Below the pieces are notes generated by a model that was not told the origin of the DNA, did not search any database, and was given only the letters and a program-made list of their open reading frames with translations. Of a DNA stretch of 50,888 nucleotides, positions 1 through 30,156 are shown in pieces (the stretch's first letter is position 1; the number at the start of each line of letters is the position of its first letter). The translations under genes and the position numbers were made by a program. Location of the stretch: IMG/VR virus record IMGVR_UViG_3300050343_000151, positions 1 to 50,888 of that record; one strand, given 5' to 3'. Source of the stretch: a virus. Taxonomy: Duplodnaviria > Caudoviricetes.

Positions 1-174
1 ATACAAAAAGAAAAATCAAAAAGTGGGGCATACCCCCCCTCCTAGGATATTTAGATAGTGTCTACGGAAAGATTTTATAAGATGGTGCTACGCACATCTT
101 ATTTCTTTCTATGCTGTCGCTTCGCTCGGCATAAAAAGGGTAGGATTTTTAAAAAAGCTAGGAAAACTGCGGAT

Positions 175-675
175 TTAATTTATTTTTTTTTCAAATAAAG
201 AATTAAAATCAATGCTATCAAATAGATTTTTATTATCTGTTTTATTTTCTGTAATCTCGGTGGCTTCGCCTTGCATGAGTTGCAGAAGTTTCTGAAGTTT
301 TTCAATGGTGTTAATATGGGCGGTCATATCTTGGGCATTGTTCACTTGCACATTAGCGGATTTAAGAGCATTAAGTATATTATCAGTCGTCAAGTTTAGC
401 ACTTCGTTATAGGCCTCTAGTCGTTCCTTGGTACTTGATACCGTCTGAGATATAGCCTCTTTTATTCCCTCTTCTTTTATGGTGATTTCATGGCGTTTCA
501 CGGCCTCGGCCCAAGAGCCTTTGGCACTCCACCGCTTCAACGTGGGTATGCTCGGCGGTATTATTGCCGAATTATTGGCGATCATTAAGGCCCTCATTTT
601 GGGAATAGATCTGTCATTCCCCATAGTTAAATAAAGTTGCAAGGCTTCAGCCTCGCCGATTGCGTGTTTTACCAT
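175..675 (-). CDS. Putative terminase small subunit / HTH DNA-binding protein
   Basis: N-terminal HTH-like segment (RSIPKM...SIPTLKRWSAKGSW) followed by helical region. Same strand as, and circularly upstream of, terL. Start 675 has a GGGG SD; ORF can extend to 711. Confidence 0.55.
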   Translation of the reverse strand: MVKHAIGEAEALQLYLTMGNDRSIPKMRALMIANNSAIIPPSIPTLKRWSAKGSWAEAVKRHEITIKEEGIKEAISQTVSSTKERLEAYNEVLNLTTDNILNALKSANVQVNNAQDMTAHINTIEKLQKLLQLMQGEATEITENKTDNKNLFDSIDFNSLFEKKIN

Positions 676-781
676 AGCCCCAAATATAAACCAATTCCGC
701 ATTGATACCAATACACGTTAACAATTCCAAAAAATGGCGGTTTTATAGGCTATTTTAAGCATATAGATTTCTGGGCAATCG

Positions 782-842
782 TTGCCACAATTGAACATTT
801 TTTGGCTAAAAACAGCCAAATTTCCGGGGTGAATTGTGGCAA
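782..842. repeat. Nested inverted repeat in the divergent terS/early intergenic region
   Basis: TTGCCACAATT (782-792) / AATTGTGGCAA (832-842) enclosing TTTGGCT...AGCCAAA; IHF-like TAAGTTGTTGAAT near 863-875. Confidence 0.7.
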
Positions 843-991
843 TTTTGCTGCTGAAATGTGGCTAAGTTGTTGAATTTAATCAATAAATTTAATCATTTTT
901 GTTTTTTTTTCTGTCAAATACTGCTAATAATATGAATGCAATTTTTACACAGATTTTGCATGAATTACAAAACCCAAAACCAAAGGAAAAT

Positions 992-1315
992 ATGAACACA
1001 ATAGAAATAGATAACAAAGACAAAGAATTATTTAAATTCTTTCTTACTATCCAAAACCTTGAAGCCTTGGAAAATGTTTTTTCTGAGATCAAGCAATTTT
1101 GCGAAACTAAAAAACAGTTCGCAATAATTCTAGATCATTTGTCGAATGCAAGATTTGCAATTGATGATCTTAAATACTTACACGAACAAAAAGACGACAA
1201 CGGCCCATACACAAATTCATATATTGATAATTTTTTAAATAATGAAATTGATACTTATGAATACGATCTAGAAGAATTAGAAGAAAAATTTTCTAACCTT
1301 TATAGAAAATCTTAA
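992..1315 (+). CDS. Hypothetical acidic early protein
   Basis: AAAGGA SD before ATG 992; TAATG coupling to next gene. Confidence 0.75.
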   Translation: MNTIEIDNKDKELFKFFLTIQNLEALENVFSEIKQFCETKKQFAIILDHLSNARFAIDDLKYLHEQKDDNGPYTNSYIDNFLNNEIDTYEYDLEELEEKFSNLYRKS

Positions 1316-2058
1316 TGGAAGCCATTAAGAAAAAAAATAATTCTGTTGGCGGTATTCTTACCGCCTCAGAATTTGAGAACAATCTCTATAATTTTTTACA
1401 GTCTAAAAAATGGACTTTGAAACAAGCCAAAATTTTAAGCGGTGGCGGTATTACAAAACAAAACAAAAAAATGCCGTTTTATAATTATGATCTATCCGCT
1501 TGGGATTGCAAAAAAGGTTCACAATTACGCAACGTAAAAAATTCAGTGTGTGGTTCATGTTATGCCATGAAAGGTAATTACTTGAGATATAAAAACGGCT
1601 CAGTTGGCCGAAGCCATGAACTACATTTAAAAAGTTTAAATAATAGTTTTGATTGGGTCATTGCTATGGCTTATCAAATTATTCATTATAAAACTAAATA
1701 TTTTAGATTTCACGCAAGTGGCGATCTACAAAGCGTTGACCATGCAATTCAAATTATAAACCTTGCAAGGTTAACACCGTCTACAAGTTATTGGATTCCA
1801 ACAAGAGAAATTTCTTTCATTAAAGAAATACAAAAAAGAAATATTTCAATTCCTAAAAATTGTATTTTTAGAATATCCGCGCCACTTGTTGACGGCTTTT
1901 TAAATTCAAAAGTTTTCAAAAATACAAGTTCAGTTATTACCGACAGCAAAAAAGCAATCGGCAAAATATGCCCAAGTTCTAAACAAGGCGGTCAATGCTT
2001 AGATTGTCGAGCGTGTTGGAAGTTCAAAGAAACTAATATTAATTATTTAATTCATTAA
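1315..2058 (+). CDS. Phage Gp88-family protein (radical-SAM-like Cys motif)
   Basis: C-x14-CGSCYAMKG, FRFHASGD, YWIPTRE, C-terminal CP..C..C..CW. Confidence 0.8.
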   Translation: MEAIKKKNNSVGGILTASEFENNLYNFLQSKKWTLKQAKILSGGGITKQNKKMPFYNYDLSAWDCKKGSQLRNVKNSVCGSCYAMKGNYLRYKNGSVGRSHELHLKSLNNSFDWVIAMAYQIIHYKTKYFRFHASGDLQSVDHAIQIINLARLTPSTSYWIPTREISFIKEIQKRNISIPKNCIFRISAPLVDGFLNSKVFKNTSSVITDSKKAIGKICPSSKQGGQCLDCRACWKFKETNINYLIH

Positions 2059-2077
2059 CAAAAACGAAAGGTAAAAA

Positions 2078-2224
2078 ATGAAAACAACCACAGAAACAAT
2101 AAGCCAAGTTTTGCTTTGGCTTCTTTGCATTCTCTTAATGTCGCAAGGCTTTTTTATATCGTCTTTGATACTTTTTTTAATCTCAGCAATAAGAATTGCT
2201 TTTGTATTTATGGAGGATTTTTAA
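2078..2224 (+). CDS. Small membrane protein, 48 aa (not in ORF track)
   Basis: GAAAGGT SD; MKTTTETISQVLLWLLCILL...IAFVFMEDF, hydrophobic. Confidence 0.65.
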   Translation: MKTTTETISQVLLWLLCILLMSQGFFISSLILFLISAIRIAFVFMEDF

Positions 2225-2226
2225 GA

Positions 2227-2367
2227 ATGACAATAGCAAGTAAGCACAAAAATAAAAAACTTATACGCTTAAAAATAAAAATTAAGCAAAGAGAATTTTA
2301 CAAAACTCTAAACCCACAAGCAAAGCCTCTAGGCTTTAACCCTCAACGCAGATTTAAAAACCAATAG
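2227..2367 (+). CDS. Small basic protein, 46 aa
   Basis: GGAGG SD before ATG 2227; MTIASKHKNKK... Confidence 0.6.
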   Translation: MTIASKHKNKKLIRLKIKIKQREFYKTLNPQAKPLGFNPQRRFKNQ

Positions 2368-2379
2368 AAAGGAAAAAAA

Positions 2380-2829
2380 ATGATAAGCACAACAACGGAA
2401 TCACTGCACAAAATGCTAGGGAAAAAAATCTTTAGCATGGTATACGCAACGCAAAGCGGACGATTAATAAAGCGAACGTGTCAATTCGGAGTAAAAAAAT
2501 ATTGTAAAAACCCACCGAAAAAATATGAACATATTATTAATTATTATGATCACACTAAGCAAGGTTATAGATTTGCTAACCTTGGCGATATCAAAGCAAT
2601 CAAGCAAGGCAAGATTAATTTAAAAAGTAATGATTTTGATGAAAGTGAAATTGATAATCATAGTTTTATAATTATTACGCAACAAGTAATAACTAGAGAA
2701 TATCGCATTCAAGCAAAGACCGAGCAAGAAGCAAAAAAGATTTGGCATAAGTTGCCAAGCCTAACCGCTAAAAGCCAAGAAGCACAAAAAGAATTTATTA
2801 ATGAAGTTCAAGAGGAGGTACAGAAATGA
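2380..2829 (+). CDS. Hypothetical; N-terminal SH3/WYL-like beta-barrel plus C-terminal short alpha/beta domain
   Basis: GKKIFSMVY..SG..KR...YYD..KQGYR pattern; C-terminal EYRIQAKTEQEAKK pattern; GAAAGGA SD. Confidence 0.55.
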   Translation: MISTTTESLHKMLGKKIFSMVYATQSGRLIKRTCQFGVKKYCKNPPKKYEHIINYYDHTKQGYRFANLGDIKAIKQGKINLKSNDFDESEIDNHSFIIITQQVITREYRIQAKTEQEAKKIWHKLPSLTAKSQEAQKEFINEVQEEVQK

Positions 2830-3914
2830 ATGTGCTTTCTCTTTTTGACGGAATGTCTTGCGGTCGAATTGCACTCGATCGCATAGGTGTAAAAGTAAAT
2901 AAATATTATGCCTCTGAAATTGATAAATACGCTATCAAAGTAAGCAAAGCCAATTGGGATGATATCATTCATCTTGGTGATGTAAACGGCATTAAGCAAT
3001 GGTATGAGGATAATCAACCAAGCATAGATTTAATGCTCATGGGTTCACCATGCCAAGGTTTTAGTAATGCAAGTAAAGACAAATTAAATTTTGAACATCC
3101 ACAAAGTAAACTTTTCTTTGTAGCGGTAGAGATAATGAAACTTGTTAAGCCTAAATATTTTCTACTTGAAAATGTAAACATGAAAAAAGAATGGCAAGAT
3201 ATTATTTCTGATTATATGGGAGTAAAGCCAATAAAAATAAATTCCGCTTTATTATCAGCCCAATCAAGAAATAGATTGTATTGGACTAATATTCCATTTG
3301 ATCAAAACATTGAGGATAAAAATATTGTCTTAAAAGATATTTTAGATGAAGAAAATATTTTTACTGAGACTTATTCTAATTATCTCAATTCCAATTGGGG
3401 TGATAAGAAAAAAACCGACATGGTTAAATCTACTGAGGATAAAAAATCTCATTGTTTAACCGCTTCAATGTACAAAGGTCAAATTCCCACATGGATTAAA
3501 AAACCGTTACGAGTTGGAACTATTCAGCAGAGCGCTAAACAAGTTGTTAATAGTGACGCGTTAATTCAAGTTGGTATTGCCGATGATATCAAAGGTCATG
3601 ATATTTTAAGGCGTGTGTATTCAATTGAGGGTAAGGCCCCAACATTAAATACTTGTAGTGGTGGTAATCGTGAACCAAAAATTGCTGACAATGTAATTCC
3701 TATTGAGAAAAATAAATTCTTATGGAGAAAGTTAACGCCCACAGAATGCGAAGCCTTACAAACAGTTAATCGTGGTTATACCGATCATGTATCGAATACT
3801 CAAAGATACCGCATGTTAGGCAATGGGTGGACGGTGGATGTTATTGGTCACATCTTAAAACCATTATTAGAAGATCAAAAAATTGTATCAATCAAATCAA
3901 AGGAGGAAAAATGA
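2826..3914 (+). CDS. DNA cytosine-5 methyltransferase
   Basis: Motif I LSLFDG, motif IV GSPCQGFS, motif VI ENV, motif VIII QSRNR, motif IX/X RKLTPTECEALQ...LGNGW. Confidence 0.95.
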   Translation: MNVLSLFDGMSCGRIALDRIGVKVNKYYASEIDKYAIKVSKANWDDIIHLGDVNGIKQWYEDNQPSIDLMLMGSPCQGFSNASKDKLNFEHPQSKLFFVAVEIMKLVKPKYFLLENVNMKKEWQDIISDYMGVKPIKINSALLSAQSRNRLYWTNIPFDQNIEDKNIVLKDILDEENIFTETYSNYLNSNWGDKKKTDMVKSTEDKKSHCLTASMYKGQIPTWIKKPLRVGTIQQSAKQVVNSDALIQVGIADDIKGHDILRRVYSIEGKAPTLNTCSGGNREPKIADNVIPIEKNKFLWRKLTPTECEALQTVNRGYTDHVSNTQRYRMLGNGWTVDVIGHILKPLLEDQKIVSIKSKEEK

Positions 3915-4180
3915 CAAACGAAAGAAGTATTAAACAAACGTGGCTCGACAAAAAAGAGCGACAATTAGTTATAAAAATGGAAACCGCTTACGCAATAGCA
4001 GATGAAATATTTTTTAAATTTATAGATCATGAAGCATTACCGAGTGGTGTAAGGGAAATTTTTATAGAGGATGATATTGAAAACAATGGAACTAAAAACA
4101 CCGAGATTGGAACCGAACTTTATTATTCTATTGAAAATAAAATAGTTGAATTATTAAAAAAAACTGAGGAGGCAATATGA
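3911..4180 (+). CDS. Hypothetical early protein
   Basis: AGGAGG SD, ATGA overlap with the methyltransferase stop. Confidence 0.75.
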   Translation: MTNERSIKQTWLDKKERQLVIKMETAYAIADEIFFKFIDHEALPSGVREIFIEDDIENNGTKNTEIGTELYYSIENKIVELLKKTEEAI

Positions 4181-4554
4181 AAACATTTAAACAAAGAGTT
4201 GAGCAACTAAAAGCTAAAGGTCATGGTGAGGGTAAATATTTACTTCAAGCTATTCCTAATAATGAGGAGGGTAGAGCCTTTATTAAAATGTTTCGTAAGC
4301 ATTTAAATAGAGATTATTTTACACATTATACTCAAGGACGAAAAGACGAGGGTTCATGGTCGCATTCAATTACACCGAGTGAGGCTGATCATTTAGTTTT
4401 ATATGTTGCACCAAAAGAAGGTAAGTATTTTAGACAAGTTGAGCAATCAGTAAATTCTAAATTACTTGATGAAACTAAATTAAAAAAACATCAACTAAAT
4501 CTTTTAACACAACAATTAAATCTAATATCATTTGAGTTAGAGAAGTTAAAATAA
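4177..4554 (+). CDS. Hypothetical early protein
   Basis: GGAGG SD, ATGA overlap. Confidence 0.75.
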   Translation: MKTFKQRVEQLKAKGHGEGKYLLQAIPNNEEGRAFIKMFRKHLNRDYFTHYTQGRKDEGSWSHSITPSEADHLVLYVAPKEGKYFRQVEQSVNSKLLDETKLKKHQLNLLTQQLNLISFELEKLK

Positions 4555-4685
4555 TGGAACTTCATTTATCTCAATTACTAATTGTATTGCCGTTAATAGG
4601 CATTGGTTATGGCGTATGGATTATTTCATCCGCCATTACTGAACATTTTATAAACCACAACGAAAGGGAAAACGACAATGAATAA
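4554..4685 (+). CDS. Small single-TM protein, 43 aa (not in ORF track)
   Basis: TAATG coupling; MELHLSQLLIVLPLIGIGYGVWIISS... Confidence 0.6.
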   Translation: MELHLSQLLIVLPLIGIGYGVWIISSAITEHFINHNERENDNE

Positions 4686-5010
4686 TTTTAAAATAGAAAT
4701 CATTGAACGTAAGTATGCAACCGCTTCGGAAGCACAACAAGAAATCATGAGTAGAGATATGAATGATAAAGTTTTAAATGATAAGGCGTTTGCATTTAAT
4801 ATTCACGCTAACGAGGACGCTAACATTGAGGATTATGTATTCTATTCAGCTAAGATTTCTAATGGAGATCAAGTTTGGTATACCGATGAAAGCTATCTGC
4901 AACGAGCATGTTTAATGGAAAACATTGAATATCAATTACAAAGAATTGAACGTGGTCAAGAGCCAACATTTTTTGAGCAAGTTGAAGTTAGATTAAAGGC
5001 GGTACAATGA
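4678..5010 (+). CDS. Hypothetical early protein
   Basis: ORF with GAAAGGG SD within the operon. Confidence 0.75.
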   Translation: MNNFKIEIIERKYATASEAQQEIMSRDMNDKVLNDKAFAFNIHANEDANIEDYVFYSAKISNGDQVWYTDESYLQRACLMENIEYQLQRIERGQEPTFFEQVEVRLKAVQ

Positions 5011-5198
5011 CACCACAAAAAACCAAAACCGAAATCGATATGATCTGTAAAAGAAAATACCGCCATACCAATTGGGCAATCAAAGGCACATGTACTTTTG
5101 AAGAATTACAAGTAAACGAGATTGCTCACGTTGATAATGAAGAGGGTATCATTTACTTCAAAAACAAAGAATTCAATGTTTCGAGGTCAATATTATGA
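5007..5198 (+). CDS. Hypothetical early protein
   Basis: ATGA overlap; operon context. Confidence 0.65.
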   Translation: MTPQKTKTEIDMICKRKYRHTNWAIKGTCTFEELQVNEIAHVDNEEGIIYFKNKEFNVSRSIL

Positions 5199-5340
5199 AA
5201 TTTTTCTCACACAGATCATCGAGGATAAGCAATTTTGGTTGGGGCTTAGTGTTAGTACCCCTCCCAAATCGCAGAATTAGCTCGAATGCAGCTTTTGCTA
5301 AAAAGAAATTAAAAGTAACTAAACTGAAAGGAAAAAAGAA

Positions 5341-5535
5341 ATGAATGAAAATGAAATAGAAAAATATGTAGTTTACAATCTAAAAACTAAACAAGAAGAT
5401 TACAAATTTTTTAAAATACATAATGCGGAAGATAGAGCATTTTATTTAAATAGTGCTGTAATTTTAGAAGATGAAATTATACCTAAAACTACAAATTGGG
5501 TAGTAAAAGAAATTTTTAATAAGGAGAATAAATAA
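5341..5535 (+). CDS. Hypothetical early protein
   Basis: GAAAGGA SD; starts MNENEI. Confidence 0.7.
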   Translation: MNENEIEKYVVYNLKTKQEDYKFFKIHNAEDRAFYLNSAVILEDEIIPKTTNWVVKEIFNKENK

Positions 5536-5738
5536 TGAATGAAAATGAAATTGATAAATTAAGAGATGAACACACCTATACTAATATCAGTACTTACTCG
5601 ATAACTTTTTGTCGCATGGATAGTGACGGCAATATGTTAAAAGATGATAACGGCAAGGTTATAGAATATCGAGCCGATGATCTAGTATGTGATGATTTAT
5701 CTGAGGATTTAGAACTAGATGATTTGGAGGAAGTATAA
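5535..5738 (+). CDS. Hypothetical acidic early protein
   Basis: AAGGAG SD; starts MNENEI; very Asp/Glu rich. Confidence 0.7.
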   Translation: MNENEIDKLRDEHTYTNISTYSITFCRMDSDGNMLKDDNGKVIEYRADDLVCDDLSEDLELDDLEEV

Positions 5739-5989
5739 TGAAAGTAAAAGAACTTATAAAAGAATTACAAGAAGTACCTAATCAAAATGCAAGAGTAGAA
5801 CTATACATTCCTGATGAAATAGAGAATGACGGTGGTAGTGATATTGTACGAAAAGATTTTGCAGTACATTCGTCACACGCTATGAATGAAGATGAAGATA
5901 ATGCAGAGTATGTTGAATTATATGCTTTGATTGATTTACATGGTCATAAACACCCTTGTTTAGAAAGTGAGAACACATGGAAGAAGTAA
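5738..5989 (+). CDS. Hypothetical acidic early protein
   Basis: GGAGG SD; MKVKELIKELQ start common in small phage proteins. Confidence 0.7.
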   Translation: MKVKELIKELQEVPNQNARVELYIPDEIENDGGSDIVRKDFAVHSSHAMNEDEDNAEYVELYALIDLHGHKHPCLESENTWKK

Positions 5990-6026
5990 TTATCCAATCT
6001 ATCTTAATGATACTAATTTTTTTACT

Positions 6027-6530
6027 TTAGATACCTAAAGCCGTACAAAGCGAATTCATACCTATTTTAAGGTTGTTTAGCTGTTTGGGATGGTGATGAG
6101 GACTATTGATTAGTGCAAGTGGCATAATGTCGTAAATACAGATTTTATCGACCGCCACTTGGATAACGAGACCACAATCAAGTAAAGCATTCTTAGCGTG
6201 ATCGTATCTATTGCGAACTCGGATCTCAGTTTCCTCATCAATTAAGCCAAGACCTCTTGTGCTGCCGATTAAGTCAGCCGTGCTTGGGTTAACTGAACCA
6301 AAGATTTTGCGTCTGAGATTGCAGTATTGTTGACCAGCTTTCAACTGATACTCATTGATCAGACCACGAGCAAAAAGTACCCCAATTGCAGATTCCGCTA
6401 AGCTAGGATCACCAGGGCCAACTAACAATGCTCTCTTCATTTGCAATTCTGGTGTACCTACATCTCTAGCTGCAATAGGTTTCTTTTTGAGTTTCTTGTT
6501 TTTCTTTTTTCTCATAATTGCCTTTCCCAT
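6027..6530 (-). CDS. Hypothetical; possible late transcription regulator
   Basis: Last gene of the replication operon; GTPEL...LFARGLI..Q.KAG..Y pattern resembles alphaproteobacterial phage proteins. Function inferred from position only. Confidence 0.45.
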   Translation of the reverse strand: MGKAIMRKKKNKKLKKKPIAARDVGTPELQMKRALLVGPGDPSLAESAIGVLFARGLINEYQLKAGQQYCNLRRKIFGSVNPSTADLIGSTRGLGLIDEETEIRVRNRYDHAKNALLDCGLVIQVAVDKICIYDIMPLALINSPHHHPKQLNNLKIGMNSLCTALGI

Positions 6531-15854: not shown

Positions 15855-16805
15855 ATGTTGCGAAAAAATTTAACTAATATTATAGAAAAAGCTAAAGTGA
15901 GCAAACCTACAGATATATCTACAGAGTCAAACGCAGGTATAGGATCATATTTTGACAAAGAGGGTAAGTATGTACAGCGCAGACCCGAAGATAATTTCTA
16001 TTTTATTATTGACAGAATTCAGACTAAGCACGGTTTAAAGTTAAACGATGTTGCTACTAAAACAGGCGTTAGTGTTAAGACTTTATACAATATCCAAAAA
16101 GAATATAGAGAACCTGGTGAAGGTCACACTACTACTATTGGTGTGATTAATAAGGTATTTGCTGCTTACCCTAAATTTAAAAAAGAGTGGGAAGAATTTA
16201 AGGCAATTATGCCAATTGATAAAAAAGAGGATGTGGTTACAAATCTTACTTTTGATAAAGATATGTATGCAACTATTCCAGTGTTGGGTAATTGGTATTC
16301 ACAATTTGATGACTGTTCTATTTCTTCATTAGAACCGCAGCAAACGCCACAAATGCTATTTCCTAAATTCGTTTTAGGGGTAGGTGGTTATCAAGACGGA
16401 CAGTCTTTAAAGGGTTGGTATGCTTTAAACTCACAATCTCCCACTTATAGTGGTGTTAGTATTATGGCTGAAATTGGTGATGTTATTCCTGGCACTAAAA
16501 TATACAGAGCTTCATTGAATAATTGGTCAATCATTAAATTTAAAGATCAAAAAAGATATTTTAAAGGTTTAATTTATGCGTGTTTAGTACCTTCTAAAAG
16601 TGGTTTTGTTAATTTACATTTATCATATAGTAACTATGAAGCTGAAGGTAAATCACCAACTAAAGTTATTAACGATATACCAATGTCAGATATTGAATAC
16701 ACAATTCCTTTTGTCTTAACAGTAAGTCAAGTCACAGTCGGCTTATGGCAAAGCAGAATCCAAAACCAAAAAATAAACAACAATGACGAAAAGATTAAAG
16801 AATAA
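15855..16805 (+). CDS. XRE-type HTH repressor-like protein
   Basis: LNDVATKTGVSVKTLYNIQ HTH; IPVLG motif opening the C-terminal domain; divergent from the lytic operon. Confidence 0.7.
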   Translation: MLRKNLTNIIEKAKVSKPTDISTESNAGIGSYFDKEGKYVQRRPEDNFYFIIDRIQTKHGLKLNDVATKTGVSVKTLYNIQKEYREPGEGHTTTIGVINKVFAAYPKFKKEWEEFKAIMPIDKKEDVVTNLTFDKDMYATIPVLGNWYSQFDDCSISSLEPQQTPQMLFPKFVLGVGGYQDGQSLKGWYALNSQSPTYSGVSIMAEIGDVIPGTKIYRASLNNWSIIKFKDQKRYFKGLIYACLVPSKSGFVNLHLSYSNYEAEGKSPTKVINDIPMSDIEYTIPFVLTVSQVTVGLWQSRIQNQKINNNDEKIKE

Positions 16806-17022
16806 AAAAGAGATTGCTACATATTTAGGATTAAGTTATCCCAATTTTTTGGCCAAAGAACACCGTTTACAGGCTGTTGGCTTCCCTAAATTAGAGCTGG
16901 TTGTTAACCGTTACGACATAAAAAAAGTCGATGCTTGGCTAGACAATGACACAATTCAGCGGGATAGTGGCTTAAAAAAACATTATGAAAGTAAACTATC
17001 CCTACTTAAAAATAATCACTAG
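16783..17022 (+). CDS. Putative excisionase (AlpA/Xis-like wHTH)
   Basis: KKEIATYLGLS...GFPK...RYDIKKVDAWLD; overlaps the integrase start. Confidence 0.7.
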   Translation: MTKRLKNKKEIATYLGLSYPNFLAKEHRLQAVGFPKLELVVNRYDIKKVDAWLDNDTIQRDSGLKKHYESKLSLLKNNH

Positions 17023-18025
17023 ACGATCTCGTTCTAAAAAATCTAAAAAAATAATTAAAAAATACTATTACTATTTTCGTAATAAAAAATTACATAAAAT
17101 AAATGTATCACCAGACCATCCACAATTTCATAAAATGTATACCGCAATTGATAGCAGCTTCGATGGTGCTACAACTCATGGTACTATTGAGTGGGCTTGT
17201 GATTGGTATCTAAAATCAAAACATCATAAGTCTCTTAGTGATTTTTCACAACGAGATGATAAAAAATTTTGTAAGGCTTTAAAGGAAGTGATAGGTGATT
17301 ATAAATTAAATTTAATTACCGCTATAGATGTTAGAGATTTTAAAGATGACTATGCTGAAGTTAAATCTAACGATGCAGCTAATAAGATTTTAAGTTTTAT
17401 GCGTAAACTTTTTAATCAAGCTGAACTAAGAGAGTTGCAACCAATTAATCCGTTTGCGAAATACGGCAAGTTAGCAACACTACCTAGGGATCAAAGGTGG
17501 GAAGATGATGAAATAGCTTTAGTGCATAAACATAAGGATGACTTGCATCCAAATAACTATTTAGTTTTTTTAATGGGATTGTATACGCTCCAAAGAATTG
17601 GAGACATTTTAGACCTAGATCGAGATCAATATGATGGTAAGAAAATATCTTTACAACAAGCAAAGACCTTGAAGAAATCAAGGAAATTGGTGGGTTTTCC
17701 AGTACATAAAGATTTAAAAATTGTACTTGATAAAAGTTTACAAGGACACAATCATCATAAACTGTTACAACAAAATTCGTACTGGAGTTTTAGAAAAGAT
17801 TTTGATAACTTCAGACGCAAACATAATTTGTCGCAAAAAAGATTTCATGATTTACGCAGAACAGGAATGGTTAAAATGGCTGAGTTGGGAGTAAATGATA
17901 TTATGATCTCGGCTGTATCTGGTCATAGTCTTGAGTCTACTAAAAGAATACTTGAAACTTACTTGCCGAGAAATTATAAAATGGCAAAGAAAGCAATGGA
18001 TACTTGGGAAAGTGGAAACCCCTAA
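16985..18025 (+). CDS. int: Tyrosine integrase
   Basis: Catalytic set: LQRIGD (R), QAKT (K), FHDLRRT (HxxR), SGHS (H), TYLP (Y). Confidence 0.95.
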   Translation: MKVNYPYLKIITRRSRSKKSKKIIKKYYYYFRNKKLHKINVSPDHPQFHKMYTAIDSSFDGATTHGTIEWACDWYLKSKHHKSLSDFSQRDDKKFCKALKEVIGDYKLNLITAIDVRDFKDDYAEVKSNDAANKILSFMRKLFNQAELRELQPINPFAKYGKLATLPRDQRWEDDEIALVHKHKDDLHPNNYLVFLMGLYTLQRIGDILDLDRDQYDGKKISLQQAKTLKKSRKLVGFPVHKDLKIVLDKSLQGHNHHKLLQQNSYWSFRKDFDNFRRKHNLSQKRFHDLRRTGMVKMAELGVNDIMISAVSGHSLESTKRILETYLPRNYKMAKKAMDTWESGNP

Positions 18026-18214
18026 CGCAAAAGTGGAAACCCCTAATTAATTTTTCGCAGTTTTCTAGTACGGCTCGATAGCTCAGTTGGTAGAGCAAAG
18101 GACTGAAAATCCTCTGGTTTATGCCCTAAGTCATTGATTTCATTGGATGGGGTTTCCACTTTGGAGTAAAAAAAACTCTATATAAATCAAGAAAAATAAA
18201 ATTAATTGGAAACC
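18009..18214 (+). mobile_element. attP site with arm-type repeats and IHF-like site
   Basis: AAAGTGGAAACCCCTAA at 18009-18025 and 18030-18046; inverted copy 18149-18162; partial copy 18206-18214; TAAGTCATTGATT 18127-18139; these flank a tRNA fragment. Confidence 0.88.
18072..18113 (+). tRNA. 5' fragment of tRNA-Phe(GAA), attP core; not a complete tRNA
   Basis: GGCTCGA-TA-GCTCAGTTGGTAGAGC-A-AAGGA-CTGAAAA-TCCT; anticodon GAA 18105-18107; no T-arm or 3' acceptor strand. Confidence 0.9.
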
Positions 18215-22692: not shown

Positions 22693-25600
22693 TTACTTCA
22701 TATCCTTTATATATTTTAAATATTCTGGTCGTTGAGATTTTCTTAATTTCTTAACTGTGTTGATTGCCCTAGGATTTCTAAGGTTTCTAAACATTCTGCG
22801 GATGTAACCATTGTTAATAGGAATATCATCCTCTCGTGCTTCAGTTCGAATACGATTTAATTCTTCTCTAAACTTTTCAGGATCAGTTTTAGCATAACGT
22901 GTATATACATATGCCATGTCGGTATAAACTTTTTTGGTTTCACGATCTAAATTGTTATCATCAAACATTAATAGTTCATTTAAGTCAGACTCTAATGAGA
23001 ACTTAGTAGGGCGACCACCAATCATATAGTTGAATACATCAAGTCTAGATACTTTATTACTAACTACTTGCCCTGATTTGTAACCACTAGTGTAAACAAT
23101 ATTAGATGGACTGGCTAAGTTCTTCATAACTGTTTCAGCATACAATTGTAACGTACTCATATCGGTTGTCGCTAATACTGCCAAGTCTTGACCGCCTGCT
23201 AACATCTCAATACCTTTTAGTGGTTTACCAATACCACTTGTAATGTTAACTGTTTGATCACCAAAAGTAGCACCAGCTTCTTGTAGTTTACGAGCGTTAA
23301 TTAAAGTAGATATAAACGGACCTTTAAATTGATCCATTAAGTTATCACCGATACTCAAACGATCATTGTAAGGAATAAATCTATTACCTAAACCAACCCT
23401 AGATGATATATCTTGGCCAACTAAAGTAGGTAAACCTTTAACAAAAAGATCACCCATCATACCAGTGGCTTCACCGTTAGCATGAGCATCTAAATTAGTA
23501 CGCATTAAAAATTTAACTGGTGAATATTCATCACCGAATAAGGATCTGATTAACCAATCAAGTGCTTGTAAACCAGGTAAGCCTAATGCTCCCGCTAGTA
23601 TATAAATGTGTAGTAATTGTTTTAACATTACCTTACGCATCTCTTTAATTCTAGCGACTGCTTCTTCGGCAGTCTCAATAGTGCCATCGTCTTTTTCTAA
23701 ACGAGTTTTTGGATTAAATGGATTGAGTTCAGCATCTTTCCATATACCTAAAGTAAATGCAGTTTGTTTGAATAAGAAGTTTTTAAATTGAGTTCCAACT
23801 TTTAAACCTTTTATTCTTAAAATTTTTGATGTATCAGATTTGTCATAGAAGAACTGTGTATCGTTCCACGCTTTTTGGCCATCAAATCTAGCTTGTTTTT
23901 CTGTCTTGCCGTTGTTGGTAGCTCTAGTATGTCCTGCCGTATAAGCCATCATACGGTTAAAGACTTCTGCTTTTTGAAATAAGAACATAGAGTACTTAGC
24001 AATAGTGCCACGATCTAAATTCATTTCAGTACCATCAGTAAATAGACCTTGGTCTACATCTACACCACCTTCATCAAATCTTTGATCCCACATAGTAGTA
24101 AACTCAGTGTCAGTACCAGTCATTTTACCACGAGTATAACGTGAAAGAATTCCATACGATTGTACTATTTCGCTGTAACTATAAAGTGCTGAAGTATTAA
24201 TAACAGTTTGCGATAAGTTAACAATCGGTGATAGTAAGTTCATAAACATACCTAATTTAGTATGTGCTGAGATACCTAAAATTGCTTGTATAGTAGGATC
24301 AAAAACTTTAGTTGATCCATCTTCGGATACTATACCTGCGTCTGAAGAGGCTTTTACTCTGCCGTAGACCATCATTCCTAACGGTACACCTATAATTAAA
24401 CCAATAACAGGAGCGCCAAAAATACCTACGACACCTGCAGCTCCTAATCCTGTCATACCAGAATAAAGTGTTGCTCGATCTAAGCCTTTAACTTTACCTT
24501 TAGTTAAGGTGTCAATACTATTATCAACTGTATTAAAAAATGAATCAAATACACTATCAAATGTATTTTCGAAACCGCCTTCAACATTACTAATGTCATT
24601 GATAAAGTTTCTAAATTCGTCTTTCATTAAGTTATCAACTGATGAATACTTTCCATCGTCTAATGCTTGTTGTATTTCATTAGCGTCATATTTCATTTCA
24701 TCTAATATTAAGAAACGCATGACGTTTTGAATATGTGAACCTAATATCTTTTGAGTGTCAGTTGAGTAACCTTCAGCACCTAATCGTTCTTTTTCAAATG
24801 AAGCGGTAACTCTTCTATCACCCATTTTAACATTTAAGTCTCTATTAATTTGAGCTAATGATTGTCTACCTGTTCTAACATCTTCTAATTGATCCGCAGT
24901 TAAAGATACTGCTAACTTTTCAATTGTTTTATCATTAAGTATAGTTGCACTGACAGCACTGTCAGCCCAAGTTGTTCCTCTATTTACAACAACAATTTTA
25001 TCGTCTTTATACTTAGGGTTAGCTTCAATAAAATTTTCCGCTGCTTGTCTTGCTTGAGCGTCTGTATCAAAATAACCTTGCTCACTAAATATGTTTTTAA
25101 CTTTACCGTCCGCGCTAACAATTCTAACACTATGACTACCAAACCATATATGAGGCAGATAACCATCATTAGTTTTAATATCAAACTCAGGTTTTATTCT
25201 AGAGTTCTCAATATCAATCATTACAATTTGACGATTTAATTCTAATTGATATGGGTTACTATTTTTGTAACCTCTCTTATAACCAATCTCTTTTTCAATT
25301 TCTCTAATACGATCGTTTAGTCTATTAATATTTTCTTCTCTAAGTTTAGCTTTCTCAGCGTTTCTTAATTTAGGAGTACGATAAACTCTTTTAAGTTCAT
25401 TATATATTTCTTCACGTTCCTTTAAAGATTCAATAATATCAATCTCGGCTCTTTCTGCTTCAAAATCAGCTTTAGCTTTAGCTATAGCTATTTCTTGAGC
25501 TGCTTTCACTGCATCACTTTCCATGATTAATTTTTCTAATTGTTTGCCGTTTGGGTTATTAACTTCTGGAAAATCTTTTTTAGTAAACTTCATTGACCAA

Positions 25601-28600
25601 CCGTCAGGAAGTGCTACTACATAACCTAATATATTTTTAGTCTTAGGATCTTTAATACGTTCAACAATTTCAACTTTACCTGCATCTTTAAACTTAGGTG
25701 TTTCAAGACTATCAAATGTTTTTTTTACGTCAGCTAATAAGTCGTTTAATCTTTTAGTAGCTTTAGGTCTGATGTTGTCGTTGTGTTCGTTAATTAATGT
25801 ACCAAGTTCATCAAGGGTGTTACGAGTTTCATTGTAACCATCAATACCTTCTTTAGTTAACTTGATTGTTTTATCACCAATAACAATACCTTCTTGTAAT
25901 TCTGCTAATGAGTACTTTTTACCTTGGCGATCACCTTCCACTATAACTGCGGATACATCTGCACGTTCAGCTTCAGGAACTTTACGCCAAACATCATTGT
26001 ATCGCTTAAAGATACGACTCATTTTTGAGGTTACACTTTGTGTATTAAATTGAAATTTTTCTATAACTTTTCTAACTTGAGGATAGACATAAGTACCATC
26101 AGGATTACGCATACTCCAAAGTTTTAACGGGCTTTGTACCCACTTTAAAAAATTTACTTTCCATTTCTTAGGTGCTTTCTTATCTGAAGTACCATCACCG
26201 TCACCGCTATCACTTTCAACACCAGCTTCATCAGGCACAATTGGCTCTGCAAGTTCTGCAAGTTTTTCTTCTTCAGTCATCTCATCCACTATAACTTTAG
26301 CTTCTGCCTCAGTACGTTCAACGGACTTTTCAACTGCTTCAACAATTTCTGGGTCTTCTATAATTTTACTTATGGGTAAACCATCTTTTAACTCACCGTT
26401 AAAACCAATATTAGTGTCTATGGATCTGTCAATGACACCTTCAAAGCCTAAAGGTTGATTTCTATCTTCAACAACCCCCAACTCATTCATGACAAATCGT
26501 TCATCTAAATACTTTTGAATTCTTTTATCTGTAATATTAAACGGAGCTTTCTCATTTGGAACTCCATATCGGCTTGTTGCCTTTTGATCTTCAGCCGTAT
26601 CAAAACGACCCCACGATGTAAAATTACTTCTTATACCAGGAGGTGGTTGTTTGTTAGGGTAATCGTGCGCCCACAATGGATTTTGTGATCTTGTTTCATA
26701 CATTTTACTAATGCTGTCAACTGGAGTAATTGTGTTAAATAGGCGTTTCCAAAACTCTGCAACTTTTGCAAAAAATTTTTCTGATAAAGTTTTTGGTGGA
26801 ATATTAGTTAATGCCCAACGTGAACTTTGTTCAGCAAACCATTCTGCAAAACTCCCATGATATGCTTGATCCTTATTTGGTATCTTATAGTCACGTTTTT
26901 TACCTGGTCTCTCAACACCACCGCTAACAACAGTTTCACCATATTTAACTTCATAATTTTGAAAGTCAGTAATGTCTTTCATCAACGCATCATTATTAAA
27001 ACTACCATCGCTGTTGCGATATATCTCAGCAGTATGTTGATTTCCAGCAAAAGCAGCTAACCTACTTAAAGGGTTACTTTTAGTAAACGTTAAGTTCTGA
27101 TATGTTTTACCTATTTGTAAATATTTAAGATAATCAAGAAGAACTGCTCTTTTAGTTGCAGTATCAGAATTGTTAAACAATTCCCATTCCATAATATGAC
27201 CAACTTCATGAGCCACTGTTGAAAGAATACTCATGTCGTCAACAGATCTATTTAAATCAGCTTCATTAAAAGTATCAAACATACGTTTAATTTGGTAACT
27301 TGTTGAGCTAGTGTCTAAATTAATAGTGTATGTTTTATTTATTTCAAAATCGGGACCAAATTCATGTTGTATATGTCCTGCAAATTTTTTCTGTGCGCGT
27401 CCAACTATATAAACATTACCACGGGTTAAACCTTGTTCAGATAATTCATTCTTAAATTTTGCCCGTCTTTTATCACTGCTTGGATTTGCGTAAACACTAT
27501 GTTTTTTTGCAACTTTTTCTGTCAAATGTCCATTACCATCTCGGTCTTTATCGGTAGTAACAAATATATTAATGTTGCTCATATTTAATTTTGCTAACAT
27601 CTGTTCCATATATTCTAATGCATAACTTGGAACTGTATCTGTACCGACAACTTTGCCATCTAATGTGTCCCCAAATGGACCAAACTTAGGTGTCGATTTA
27701 GTTGGAACTGCTGGCCCTTTAGTTTTCTTCTTAACAACTTTTTTTTCTTCTTGACCAAAAGTATTTGACCAAGAGCGTTTGTCATACTCTAACCTAGTGC
27801 CATCAGGTAAAAAGATATCTACAATTTCGTTACTGGCTTCATCAATTTGAGATTTTTGTTTAGCTCTTACCGCGGGCTTGTTTCGATCTGTGCCTTCTTC
27901 TACAAATTGTATCGGAATTGCATTAATACCTTCTTCAATATAACTGTTTAAGTTATTAAGGTTATCTTGAGTATCATTTATTATATAACGGCTTCCAGTT
28001 TTACCGGGCATTTTAGTAACTATAATTTGTGGAATATTTGCCCCACCAACATTTGATTGATTATCAAAATCTTGAAATGTAAATCTTGAATCAGAATTAC
28101 TACCAGCTAATTGAAAAGCCCCTACACCAGATCGTAATTGCGCTCTAGTTGGATCAATAAATTTAGATTTTAAATTAAATGATTTAGCTAAATTTTCTGC
28201 TTGAGCTTTAGTAATAAACCCTACTTTACCGATAAACTTACCTTTAAGATCTTTTTTATCAATGGCTGCTCTAGTAGAATTTTGATCTGCTGAATTTTTA
28301 TTAGCAGCTCTTGCACGTTGTACAGAAGGTCTGTTGTCTATCGTATAATAGCCATCATCAAGTATAGTTGTCGCTGTATCTGCTATATCTTTTGGATCTA
28401 GTTCTTCAACAGTTTCTTTTACCGCTTTAGTTTCAGCAGTTGGTTTATTATAGATGCCTCTTTTTTCAGCTTCTTTTTTAAGAGCAAAACCGTCACGCAT
28501 TGCACTGTAATAAGTGTCTTGTCCTGCACCAAACTTATCACTTGTTTTTTTACGGTCTTTAATTCTTGTTCTTCTATCTGCAAGAAGTGCTAATAATTGT

Positions 28601-30156
28601 TCATTAGATAAATCTTTAGGTTTGATTTTAGTTTCTTTGCCGTCAATACCACTTAATTCAAAATTTTCATCTAAAGGATTTTTAGTATCATATTCAAATC
28701 CTAAAATTTGAGGCTCACCATCTAATTCAAAATCAACTTGACCTGTCTCTTGATCTCTTGAAATAACTCTTACTCTTTTTTTTCTACCTTGAAGATCATA
28801 GACATCTATATGTGAACCATCATCAATATCATCTTTAGTAGTCTTTGGTCGCCAGTCAGGACCATTGTCATCAAACGGAGTTAACTCAACTGTATCAAAT
28901 CCAAACGGATCAAGTTCTTCATCTACGTCCATGTCGTAGTAATCGTCATCAGCTAATACAGTTTGAAAACCGCCAGTGGGTGTTGAGCCACCCATATTGT
29001 CAATGCCTTCAGCTATTTCTTTTTCTGCATCGATAGCAGCTTTGATTCTGCGTGTCTTTGCTTTAGCAAACGGATAAACAATTGCAGTTAAAGTACCGCC
29101 CGCAATACCACCTAAAATTCCTTCGTATTGATTTTCTGCCCAACCAATAGTTTTTTCTGGGTCTAAGAACATCTGCTCAATATAATCTTGTGCAATAGCT
29201 TGAGCGTATTCTTGGCCACCCTCAAGAAAGGCTCCAGACACCGCGCCTGTAAACACATCACCAGTAACTTGGGCTAATCTATTGTTGCCCATCTTTTTAG
29301 CAACACCTTCAATAATTGGATTCTTACCAATAATTTTACCAAGAATACTATATGACATAGCAGTCTTAGCTTTACCGCCCTTACTAAGTTTAGATAACTT
29401 ACTTGCAACTAAACCTATTGGTGCTGCTTCTAATGTACCTAAACCAAAGGAAGCTCCTACAGCTTTTGAAAATTCAATATCATATTCATCATAACCTAAA
29501 CTTCTAGCACGTTCAGCCATATCACCTGCTGCCATGCCACCACCTAAAGCAGCCATCATACCTATACCTGCTAATGGCCCACCAACGGCAGTACCTGCTA
29601 CACCTGCACCAATGAAACCACCGAGATTACCAAACACATAACCAAGGTCATCAACCCAATCATCGTCTGTAAAATCTACTTCACCAAACCATTCACGATT
29701 AGCATCACGGACAGCTTGTCCAGCTTTCCATAAAGTACTGTCATTACCACTTGCAAATTCTTCAAAGAAATTTTTATAATTATCATCAGTTGCAGTTCCT
29801 GCCGCAACTGCTTCAGAAATACCTTGTAACGCTAGACCACCAGTATCGATCACACCGCTCATAAGACTTTGACTAAATCTACTTATAGCTCCACGATCAT
29901 CAAAAGAATTTTCAGTAACTTGTGGCACCAATAAATTACGCATAGTTGGATCGCCAGAAACATATTGCGATACTTGAAATGCTTGAGCGTTAGGATTTAA
30001 TTCTGAAAAATCCATTGACTGACCTTTTAATAAGGCAGGCTCATAATTAGCAAGTGGATTAGAGAGTAGATTAAGTTCAATATCTCTAGCGTCAGCATTC
30101 AGCCGTTGTTCTCTAGATGCAATTGGATTCTGCTCTTCTTCTAAGTTCTTAACCAT
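22693..30156 (-). CDS. Giant internal virion/DNA-ejection protein with zincin-like HExxH motif
   Basis: 2487 aa; last of the ejection cluster; Gly/Ala-rich hydrophobic stretches; AHEVGH plus downstream EWFAE. Confidence 0.8.
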   Translation of the reverse strand: MVKNLEEEQNPIASREQRLNADARDIELNLLSNPLANYEPALLKGQSMDFSELNPNAQAFQVSQYVSGDPTMRNLLVPQVTENSFDDRGAISRFSQSLMSGVIDTGGLALQGISEAVAAGTATDDNYKNFFEEFASGNDSTLWKAGQAVRDANREWFGEVDFTDDDWVDDLGYVFGNLGGFIGAGVAGTAVGGPLAGIGMMAALGGGMAAGDMAERARSLGYDEYDIEFSKAVGASFGLGTLEAAPIGLVASKLSKLSKGGKAKTAMSYSILGKIIGKNPIIEGVAKKMGNNRLAQVTGDVFTGAVSGAFLEGGQEYAQAIAQDYIEQMFLDPEKTIGWAENQYEGILGGIAGGTLTAIVYPFAKAKTRRIKAAIDAEKEIAEGIDNMGGSTPTGGFQTVLADDDYYDMDVDEELDPFGFDTVELTPFDDNGPDWRPKTTKDDIDDGSHIDVYDLQGRKKRVRVISRDQETGQVDFELDGEPQILGFEYDTKNPLDENFELSGIDGKETKIKPKDLSNEQLLALLADRRTRIKDRKKTSDKFGAGQDTYYSAMRDGFALKKEAEKRGIYNKPTAETKAVKETVEELDPKDIADTATTILDDGYYTIDNRPSVQRARAANKNSADQNSTRAAIDKKDLKGKFIGKVGFITKAQAENLAKSFNLKSKFIDPTRAQLRSGVGAFQLAGSNSDSRFTFQDFDNQSNVGGANIPQIIVTKMPGKTGSRYIINDTQDNLNNLNSYIEEGINAIPIQFVEEGTDRNKPAVRAKQKSQIDEASNEIVDIFLPDGTRLEYDKRSWSNTFGQEEKKVVKKKTKGPAVPTKSTPKFGPFGDTLDGKVVGTDTVPSYALEYMEQMLAKLNMSNINIFVTTDKDRDGNGHLTEKVAKKHSVYANPSSDKRRAKFKNELSEQGLTRGNVYIVGRAQKKFAGHIQHEFGPDFEINKTYTINLDTSSTSYQIKRMFDTFNEADLNRSVDDMSILSTVAHEVGHIMEWELFNNSDTATKRAVLLDYLKYLQIGKTYQNLTFTKSNPLSRLAAFAGNQHTAEIYRNSDGSFNNDALMKDITDFQNYEVKYGETVVSGGVERPGKKRDYKIPNKDQAYHGSFAEWFAEQSSRWALTNIPPKTLSEKFFAKVAEFWKRLFNTITPVDSISKMYETRSQNPLWAHDYPNKQPPPGIRSNFTSWGRFDTAEDQKATSRYGVPNEKAPFNITDKRIQKYLDERFVMNELGVVEDRNQPLGFEGVIDRSIDTNIGFNGELKDGLPISKIIEDPEIVEAVEKSVERTEAEAKVIVDEMTEEEKLAELAEPIVPDEAGVESDSGDGDGTSDKKAPKKWKVNFLKWVQSPLKLWSMRNPDGTYVYPQVRKVIEKFQFNTQSVTSKMSRIFKRYNDVWRKVPEAERADVSAVIVEGDRQGKKYSLAELQEGIVIGDKTIKLTKEGIDGYNETRNTLDELGTLINEHNDNIRPKATKRLNDLLADVKKTFDSLETPKFKDAGKVEIVERIKDPKTKNILGYVVALPDGWSMKFTKKDFPEVNNPNGKQLEKLIMESDAVKAAQEIAIAKAKADFEAERAEIDIIESLKEREEIYNELKRVYRTPKLRNAEKAKLREENINRLNDRIREIEKEIGYKRGYKNSNPYQLELNRQIVMIDIENSRIKPEFDIKTNDGYLPHIWFGSHSVRIVSADGKVKNIFSEQGYFDTDAQARQAAENFIEANPKYKDDKIVVVNRGTTWADSAVSATILNDKTIEKLAVSLTADQLEDVRTGRQSLAQINRDLNVKMGDRRVTASFEKERLGAEGYSTDTQKILGSHIQNVMRFLILDEMKYDANEIQQALDDGKYSSVDNLMKDEFRNFINDISNVEGGFENTFDSVFDSFFNTVDNSIDTLTKGKVKGLDRATLYSGMTGLGAAGVVGIFGAPVIGLIIGVPLGMMVYGRVKASSDAGIVSEDGSTKVFDPTIQAILGISAHTKLGMFMNLLSPIVNLSQTVINTSALYSYSEIVQSYGILSRYTRGKMTGTDTEFTTMWDQRFDEGGVDVDQGLFTDGTEMNLDRGTIAKYSMFLFQKAEVFNRMMAYTAGHTRATNNGKTEKQARFDGQKAWNDTQFFYDKSDTSKILRIKGLKVGTQFKNFLFKQTAFTLGIWKDAELNPFNPKTRLEKDDGTIETAEEAVARIKEMRKVMLKQLLHIYILAGALGLPGLQALDWLIRSLFGDEYSPVKFLMRTNLDAHANGEATGMMGDLFVKGLPTLVGQDISSRVGLGNRFIPYNDRLSIGDNLMDQFKGPFISTLINARKLQEAGATFGDQTVNITSGIGKPLKGIEMLAGGQDLAVLATTDMSTLQLYAETVMKNLASPSNIVYTSGYKSGQVVSNKVSRLDVFNYMIGGRPTKFSLESDLNELLMFDDNNLDRETKKVYTDMAYVYTRYAKTDPEKFREELNRIRTEAREDDIPINNGYIRRMFRNLRNPRAINTVKKLRKSQRPEYLKYIKDMK

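Follow-up and report, generated by a model that had tools for sequence, protein, structure and literature searches.

Near-absence of the word CCNG from the terS and early region of a phage genome and its statistical link with a methyltransferase module

Why should a phage genome lack a short word over its first six kilobases and carry it about 10 times per kb elsewhere? The question is raised by IMG/VR record IMGVR_UViG_3300050343_000151 (Duplodnaviria; Caudoviricetes), of which the whole stretch of 50,888 nucleotides was analysed and is called the window here. Its left end holds a terS-like gene and a divergent early operon that encodes a C5 cytosine methyltransferase (hereafter the methylase). 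The first-pass annotation had noted that CCNG and its complement CNGG (N, any base) are nearly absent from positions 1–6333, the zone discussed below. It had proposed that this end enters the cell first, avoids a host nuclease that reads a CCWGG- or CCNGG-type site, and supplies a methylase that protects the rest of the genome. Our recount found only CTGG at 771, CCGG at 824, CGGG at 825 and CCTG at 5810 in the zone; the site earlier placed at 823–827 is one base off and is CCGGG at 824–828. There are 65 AGG trimers in the zone (about 60 had been claimed), yet neither CCAG nor CAGG occurs. The words are common from 6334 (CCAG 6334, CCAGG 6412 onward), and 16 were counted in the second plus-strand operon (15855–18025), for which about 15 had been given.

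Under a Markov model, no 4-mers of the region were more under-represented than the four CCNG words. A full codon shuffle of 1–6333 predicted 55.2 strand matches of CCNG/CNGG (minimum 34 in 200 shuffles), and 5 were observed; outside the zone the corresponding values were 478 observed and 586 expected, a CCNG observed/expected ratio (O/E) of about 0.82. The depletion also held under synonymous shuffling, with 1 vs 17.5 in the early operon (0/1000 as low; one small open reading frame (ORF) was out of frame) and 1 vs 17.0 with automatic ORF calls (0/200). The second plus-strand operon gave 16 vs 21.7 and the rest of the genome 432 vs 514 under the same procedure. Thus, as the first-pass annotation had argued, codon or strand bias is insufficient to explain the gap. 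The longest stretch without CCNG measures 4,985 bp and the runner-up 1,221 bp. In a survey of all short motifs over 22 five-kb windows, the strongest local depletion was that of CCNG in window 1–5000. Scans for avoidance over whole genomes would not pick up the zone, since the CCNG deficit elsewhere in this genome is only about 18%.

The zone spans both the terS-like gene and the early operon with the methylase, and each is depleted (Table 1). The terS-like gene, which lies on the opposite strand, is purged (0 vs 9.2), whereas the first late gene across the adjoining ORF-free gap is not (3 vs 3.0). Hence the zone is set by position, not by operon. The terS orthologue of a second full-length lineage (L002) also lacks CCNG (0 vs 4.4, 13/1000 codon shuffles). 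The right edge can be placed only between 5989 and 6334, as 6027–6330 holds 0 sites with 1.0 expected. We conclude that the zone is maintained by selection and not by composition.

The avoided word is CCNG itself, on both strands and with any flank. Sorted by the 3' flank, the zone holds 1 CCNGA vs 6.5 expected, 0 CCNGT vs 5.6 and 0 CCNGC vs 3.3; sorted by the 5' base, each class has 0–1 vs 3.4–5.5, and both orientations are empty (1 vs 7.4 and 0 vs 10.2). GCNG, ACNG and TCNG stand at normal levels. Outside the zone, CCNGA and CCNGT are mildly low (0.77), but CCNGG is not (42 vs 44). Since the word is lost regardless of its flank and CCNGG is spared outside, what is avoided is neither CCWGG nor CCNGG, and the nuclease type named in the first-pass annotation is not supported; a CCNGG is even conserved inside the zone. 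SCNGS, GCNGC and GGCC were also rejected as the motif, with GCNG at 24 vs 23.5 and GGCC present in the zone. Decay of 5-methylcytosine (5mC) was rejected as well: between relatives, the inner C of CCNG has no C-to-T excess (36/345 vs 394/3,359 for CCNH), so methyl-decay is no explanation. The decay products of CCNG show no clear gain, and both strands are equally empty.

The avoidance has a cost at the protein level. Several dipeptides force a CCNG whatever codons are used, namely Pro followed by Ala, Val, Asp, Glu or Gly, together with Thr-Gly and Ala-Gly. The zone proteins contain 1 such dipeptide vs 18.7 expected (0/1000), that is, the Pro-Asp of the exception at 5810, and the proteins outside contain 303 vs 323. 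The reversed dipeptides, used as a control, number 11 vs 18.5 in the zone. Two relatives behave alike (L108, 0 vs 15.2; L116, 0 vs 18.5). Among 84 representative methylases, Pro-Asp or Pro-Glu follows QTV in 70 and Ala-Gly follows the catalytic PCQGFS in 68; both pairs are replaced in the window, L108 and L002. A DNA-level defence pressure would then be able to clear an entire operon of common dipeptides and to change residues that methylases conserve.

We examined the same region in relatives of the clade, whose primases are 93–94% (L108, L118) or 81% (L116, L117, L119) identical to that of the window. The early operons of all five are CCNG-free, including genes unshared between lineages, and the early zones have 0 vs 14.6 (L108), 12.7 (L118), 13.1 (L116) and 12.7 (L119). 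Conserved and lineage-specific genes of the zone are equally empty. Another relative, L114, has the same operon with a different version of TRD1, a predicted target-recognition module in the variable region of the methylase. Here CCAG (9 vs 9.8) and CCGG (2 vs 1.3) are present, and CCTG (0 vs 5.3) and CCCG (0 vs 2.3) are missing. Three short contigs that do not reach the methylase (L112, L113, L086) likewise have CCAG/CTGG only.

By its sequence the enzyme is a C5 cytosine methyltransferase of family PF00145, predicted to methylate DNA. Catalytic motifs I, IV (PC), VI (ENV), VIII (QxRxR) and X are intact (residues 7, 73, 115, 146 and 332), and among solved structures the core is matched best by DNMT3A/B (E 3e-21), with M.HhaI behind them. 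The variable region is built of modules, and relatives gain or lose whole units. The short linker between TRD1 and the second module, TRD2, at window 3516–3555 is occupied by a whole extra module in P0003, P0006, P0007, P0008, P0015 and L119. TRD2 is 62–68% identical over 34 amino acids (aa) to a module of the Bacillus phage methylases phi3T, H2 and rho11s (hidden Markov model E about 1e-19). Its presence alone does not suffice for avoidance, and it was rejected as the cause of CCTG avoidance, as seven clusters with a TRD2 variant gave no CCTG signal; a module common to L114 and the three methylase-carrying pelagiphages described below is the better candidate. TRD1 has no meaningful match in cultured phages (1 at E 8). 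Matches to the Bacillus phage methylase M.SPR are weak, at residues 308–318 for TRD1 (E 0.32) and 308–320 for the L114-type module (E 0.032), a part of M.SPR that we take to be its CCGG module. M.SPRI reads GGCC, CCGG and CCWGG according to the part of the preprint consulted (bioRxiv 10.1101/2020.03.09.983320). A target conferred module by module, as in enzymes of the M.SPR/M.phi3T type, may be suspected here from the way motif loss tracks modules, which is only indirect evidence.

Is the loss of CCNG linked with TRD1 in other phages? Loci were gathered by methylase, TRD1 or TRD2 (best 80 of 318 matches in the methylase scan, best 80 of 85 and best 80 of 528 in the two module scans). With the window's own clade and loci under 3,500 bp excluded, this gave 228 loci in 83 clusters. 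Among 1,198 motifs, CCNGA ranked first in separating 21 TRD1 from 63 non-TRD1 representatives (0.59 vs 0.99), and CCNG ranked 27th. CCWG was lower near the methylase than far from it in 16/19 TRD1 loci vs 26/54 others, and CG varied little with distance. The early-operon comparison was confined to the 33 clusters whose early operon is divergent, the 50/83 clusters of other layout being left out. In these architecture-matched operons CCNG ranked first of 1,204 motifs, with a median O/E of 0.52 in 12 TRD1 clusters vs 0.90 in 21 others. Forced dipeptides were reduced in the TRD1 clusters (105 vs 284; reversed control 203 vs 281) but not in the others (441 vs 441). The O/E in TRD1 phages was 0.28–0.43 up to the end of the methylase gene, 0.52–0.58 over the next 3 kb and 0.67–0.80 thereafter, whereas it was flat at 0.83–0.99 in phages without TRD1. 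CCNGA (0.46) and CCNGT (0.49) were hit hardest in the TRD1 early zones, and full CCNGG was mostly spared (24 vs 29). CCCG was also low early (24 vs 46) and normal far away (148 vs 150); the window alone, with 0 vs 1.9, is uninformative on this word. The other TRD1 groups share 0–1 of 26 other proteins with this phage.

A related signal was found in T7-like pelagiphages. Early CCTG numbered 4 vs 21.8 in three methylase carriers, of which two are near twins, 22 vs 27.1 in three sisters of the same genus, and 109 vs 95.9 in 11 non-carriers, which are partial genomes. An orthologous early gene had 0, 0 and 0 CCTG in the carriers vs 6, 1 and 3 in the sisters. However, the genus of the carriers has few CCTG in its polymerase block whether the methylase is present or not (O/E about 0.4–0.7). 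The carriers include HTVC309P and HTVC134P, and HTVC120P is a non-carrier. The early zones of the carriers (L091–L093) also have little CCATC (0 vs 16.5) and GCAG (11 vs 27.7), which may mark other modules. Two further patterns were seen. Loci with a TRD2-type methylase (L230–L234, L238, L240, L254, L270, L288) avoid CCAG throughout (O/E 0.14–0.38 where flanks allow) and have almost none near the gene (0–2 vs 6–16). In L076, CCTG/CAGG is nearly gone from the entire locus (3 vs 20 in the early part and 0.00 far away), with CCAG in excess.

If the zone is a leader, a genome end should lie beside it. Position 1 itself was rejected as that end: it is an assembly end, through which the 99.4% identical contig L001 reads. 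L001 supplies 7,078 bases between window 50888 and window 1, in which lie the beginning of terL, genes resembling oxygenases and a tail fibre, and the genome then comes to about 57,966 bp. This genome carries an SU10-like portal and adaptor, an AAA_25 primase-helicase and a tyrosine integrase, and the phage is a marine, probably temperate podovirus. The final CCNG of the late arm is at L001 6939, which puts the left edge of the zone about 236 bp before position 1, within an ORF-free gap. Non-coding blocks of this gap are conserved in two lineages and contain a run of eight G (G8) and an inverted repeat, GGGG..CCCCC. The loss of CCNG, for its part, was found within 1.5 kb of the methylase gene only in L001 and L002 of 85 loci, and we therefore rejected it as a general trait of the methylase family. 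The closest terminases (21–28% identical) belong to SIO1/cobavirus-type phages. The available part of one account gives terminal repeats of 159–173 bp for cultivated cobaviruses and places the SIO1 genome end in an ORF-free region between modules (PMC6775973). Contig depth, which cannot show genome ends, was raised over terS and to its left in three runs of one set of four (146 vs 90–103; 51 vs 30; 39 vs 22) and flat in the fourth (2.1–2.5). The step is a weak hint, and it would fit strain sharing as well as the start of packaging or a repeat of greater length.

Taken with the relaxation of the depletion just after the methylase gene in related phages, the selection on the zone and its tie to the methylase variable region support the earlier proposal in part, though not its CCWGG/CCNGG nuclease. 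The terS-like gene and the early operon, kept CCNG-free on both strands, would enter the cell first, from a fixed terminus in the ORF-free gap and by a slow, ordered entry. In this leader a nuclease of the host, whose predicted targets are unmethylated sites of the CCNG type, would find nothing to cut. The early methylase would be made, its TRD1 predicted to read CCNG, and would mark the remaining genome while it enters. We give this combination of a site-free leader with methylation of incoming DNA about an even chance of being right. Virions from a cell that expresses the methylase could be pre-methylated, a point that the first-pass annotation missed, so the model needs under-methylated progeny. 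Seong et al. described marine viral methylomes that mismatch predicted methylase motifs (PMC9516812, consulted in part), which would allow, but does not show, such virions. It is possible, although we hold it tentatively, that an undescribed nuclease of marine bacteria reads the half-site CCNG, most strongly CCNGA and CCNGT, and that several unrelated phage groups answer it with the same portable kit, in which a leader recoded as far as its amino acids is combined with a methylase module that marks the incoming DNA.

Several observations weigh against the site-free leader model. A full CCNGG between terS and the early operon, inside the zone, is kept in both full-length lineages, and L002 and L119 hold a second one in the same intergenic region. 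These conserved sites (window 824–828; L002 1992, 2025) may be methylation-sensitive control sites. The module swap is a single methylase-bearing contig, L114. Of the 12 TRD1 clusters, 8 belong to one broad phage group, so that p-values overstate the link and about three independent groups remain (this clade, the L140 group and L158). TRD1 occurs with a second shared module in 9/12, and the three clusters without it (L167, L209, L216) show little or no CCNG loss. Many CG-containing words are also low in TRD1 phages, and thus a shared host could confound the link. Three members of the L140 group that lack TRD1 are undepleted but have a higher GC content (0.44–0.45). The depth step falls inside terS instead of the gap, so that packaging could be of the headful kind, and leader avoidance would not apply to headful packers, as one partly available source has it (PMC12455610). 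A host with such a nuclease would itself need matching protection. No restriction enzyme that recognises three unmethylated bases in the manner of CCNG is known to us, and none appeared in our literature search.

Other explanations account for part of these data. The methylase could mark virion CCNG against ordinary restriction, and the leader could evade a methyl-dependent host nuclease of the MspJI/LpnPI type until an early inhibitor, perhaps a small acidic protein, is made. This would predict the same link between module and motif and would remove the problem of pre-methylated virions. It fits the extension of the clade's zone 2 kb beyond the methylase to the acidic ORFs, and known enzymes do read short methylated words (LpnPI C-m5C-DG, FspEI C-m5C; PMC3874153, in the portion available). 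However, it would need the methylase only during replication, and the gene is early and the depletion relaxes right after it in TRD1 phages; for this reason we prefer the site-free leader with methylation of incoming DNA. CCCG, which an enzyme reading CCDG spares, is depleted early, and PADLOC gave no match, hence no inhibitor, for the five ORFs scanned among 3911..5989. We regard this explanation as unlikely. Rather improbable, in our judgement, is a host defence that reads CCNG and is disabled by some other early protein, with TRD1 a marker of the host group and the methylase aimed at a different target. The small number of independent groups and the low CG-containing words favour it, as does TRD1 in gapless phages, mostly with the methylase outside the early operon (L204, L224, L155). 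Against it stand the shift of motif with the module swap in L114 and the step at the methylase end; the CCTG-poor early zones of the pelagiphage carriers also speak against it, though less so given their polymerase block.

An abundant early methylase might also bind or methylate CCNG and so hinder transcription or entry of its own operon without any host nuclease. Such self-interference would account for the module link and the local zone, and the conserved intergenic CCNGG could be autoregulatory. But the terS-like gene on the opposite strand is purged and the replication genes are not, and the cost in conserved residues looks too high for a mild effect, so we consider it quite improbable. 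Finally, the zone might reflect no selection at all but low GC, codon use, 5mC deamination or a cassette from a CCNG-poor genome. The early operon does have 31% GC vs 36% elsewhere, and CCNG is mildly low genome-wide. This neutral account is already largely refuted and very improbable, because the depletion survives both kinds of shuffle, lacks a C-to-T excess, leaves the other NCNG words at normal levels and is equally complete in conserved and lineage-specific genes.

Table 1. Coordinates of the features at the left end of the window (CCNG counts are observed vs expected).
Feature	Position	Strand	Remarks
ORF-free gap, right part	1..174	.	zone starts in gap (L001 6917-7349, about 433 bp); candidate terminus or packaging site
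terS-like gene	175..711	-	start probably ATG 675; PHROG 6299, E 3e-11; CCNG 0 vs 9.2, 0/1000 codon shuffles
CTGG exception, polymorphic	771..774	+	not present in L001
CCGGG, full CCNGG site	824..828	.	divergent intergenic region; CCAGG at aligned place in L002/L119
Core CCNG/CNGG-free stretch	826..5809	.	0 vs 35.7 (full codon shuffle)
First early ORF	932..1315	+	acidic (isoelectric point, pI, 4.6), no family
GP88-family protein, function unknown	1315..2058	+	PF17338, E 3e-19; ESM Atlas GP88 clusters; CCNG 0 vs 7.7
WYL_2-like small protein	2380..2829	+	PF10902, E 0.0012, 19.5 bits, below Pfam cut-off 26.7
Orphan C5 cytosine methyltransferase	2826..3914	+	PF00145, E 7e-38; CCNG 0 vs 11.6; no forced dipeptides
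TRD1, predicted target-recognition module	3363..3515	+	presence tracks CCNG avoidance
TRD2	3555..3689	+	homologous to module of Bacillus phi3T/SPbeta/H2/rho11s methylases
Small early ORFs past methylase	3911..5989	+	several acidic (pI 4.1-4.8); CCNG 1 vs 11.5, 1/1000
CCTG exception	5810..5813	+	forced by Pro-Asp in ORF 5738-5989
Conserved 167-aa gene, CCNG resumes at 6334	6027..6530	-	4 vs 6.8, not depleted

The small ORFs at 3911..5989 may be regarded as putative anti-defence genes. Elsewhere in the genome, a 2,487-aa protein without clear family (window 22693–30156, minus strand) is possibly an ejection protein relevant to slow entry. L001 422–1664 and 3977–6367, between terL and a collagen-repeat tail fibre, encode a 2OG-Fe(II) oxygenase and a neighbour that is maybe another. 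Directly after the integrase, window 18072–18113 (plus strand) matches the 5' half of tRNA-Phe(GAA); it is likely the attP core and is near-identical in L083/L109.

We searched for the host with this tRNA-Phe fragment, which matched 2/301 genomes of one order (2 mismatches), 0/61, 1/251 (1 mismatch) and 1/81 (the same genome) in the sets screened. Two metagenome-assembled genomes with contigs of the clade disagree (Methylobacillus, Flavobacteriales), and no host junction was seen. In 881–6000 there are 2 GANTC vs 8.9 expected, with 68 vs 103 outside. The early zones of L108, L118, L116, L119 and L114 are GANTC-poor too, which hints at an alphaproteobacterial host. GATGC is also low in 881–6000 (0 vs 5.4). 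CGNCG is missing from the whole genome of the window phage (0 vs about 44) and has a count of 0 in HTVC309P, HTVC134P and CRP-9. AAGCTT, GCAAGC, GAGCAC, GAGCCC, GGGCAC and CTTAAG are missing outside the zone.

T5, T7 and Murciavirus are established cases of early-injected DNA that avoids restriction sites, as described in the consulted part of PMC12455610. There too, a motif is missing from the region presumed to enter first and present elsewhere, and early genes are proposed to neutralise the defence. The sites in that account are long and rare and are removed by one mutation, whereas the present word has three specified bases and occurs about once per 100 bp. Dozens of sites have been purged here, amino acids have been changed, and the predicted protector is a methylase and not an inhibitor. 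The available text on plasmid leading regions similarly concerns a test of first-transferred DNA for lost restriction targets (bioRxiv 2025.04.03.647016), but with palindromic 4–8-mers and a depletion only in certain plasmid groups. Nucleases of the MspJI family (LpnPI, SgrTI, FspEI) resemble the predicted enzyme in reading very short asymmetric sites near CCNG; in the accessible parts of the reports they need 5mC (PMC3874153), and the LpnPI site CCDG (PMC6329791) spares CCCG, which is depleted in our case.

Tandem-module phage methylases are already known, as set out in the consulted part of PMC8936443. The enzyme of the window resembles the Bacillus methylases M.SPR, M.phi3T, M.H2 and M.rho11s in having tandem exchangeable modules in a variable region and a homologous TRD2, but its TRD1 matches SPR only weakly and its catalytic core is closest to DNMT3 among solved structures. 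To our knowledge, the multispecific Bacillus methylases have not been reported within a site-free leader.

In open PubMed Central papers and bioRxiv (without supplements), we found nothing that describes a leader lacking CCNG, a cost to the proteins or a tie between the motif of a leader and a methylase module. Leaders that avoid sites are known; the literature searched gave no precedent for a motif of three bases, for its price in amino acids or for its link with a TRD. The feature is real, strong and replicated, and it is a variant of a known strategy. If the link with the module holds, local motif holes would assign targets to many orphan phage methylases and reveal host nucleases with unusually short sites. 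If the site-free leader model is true, the word missing from a leader would reveal, from sequence alone, the specificity of the methylase, the direction of entry and host defences that are still unknown.

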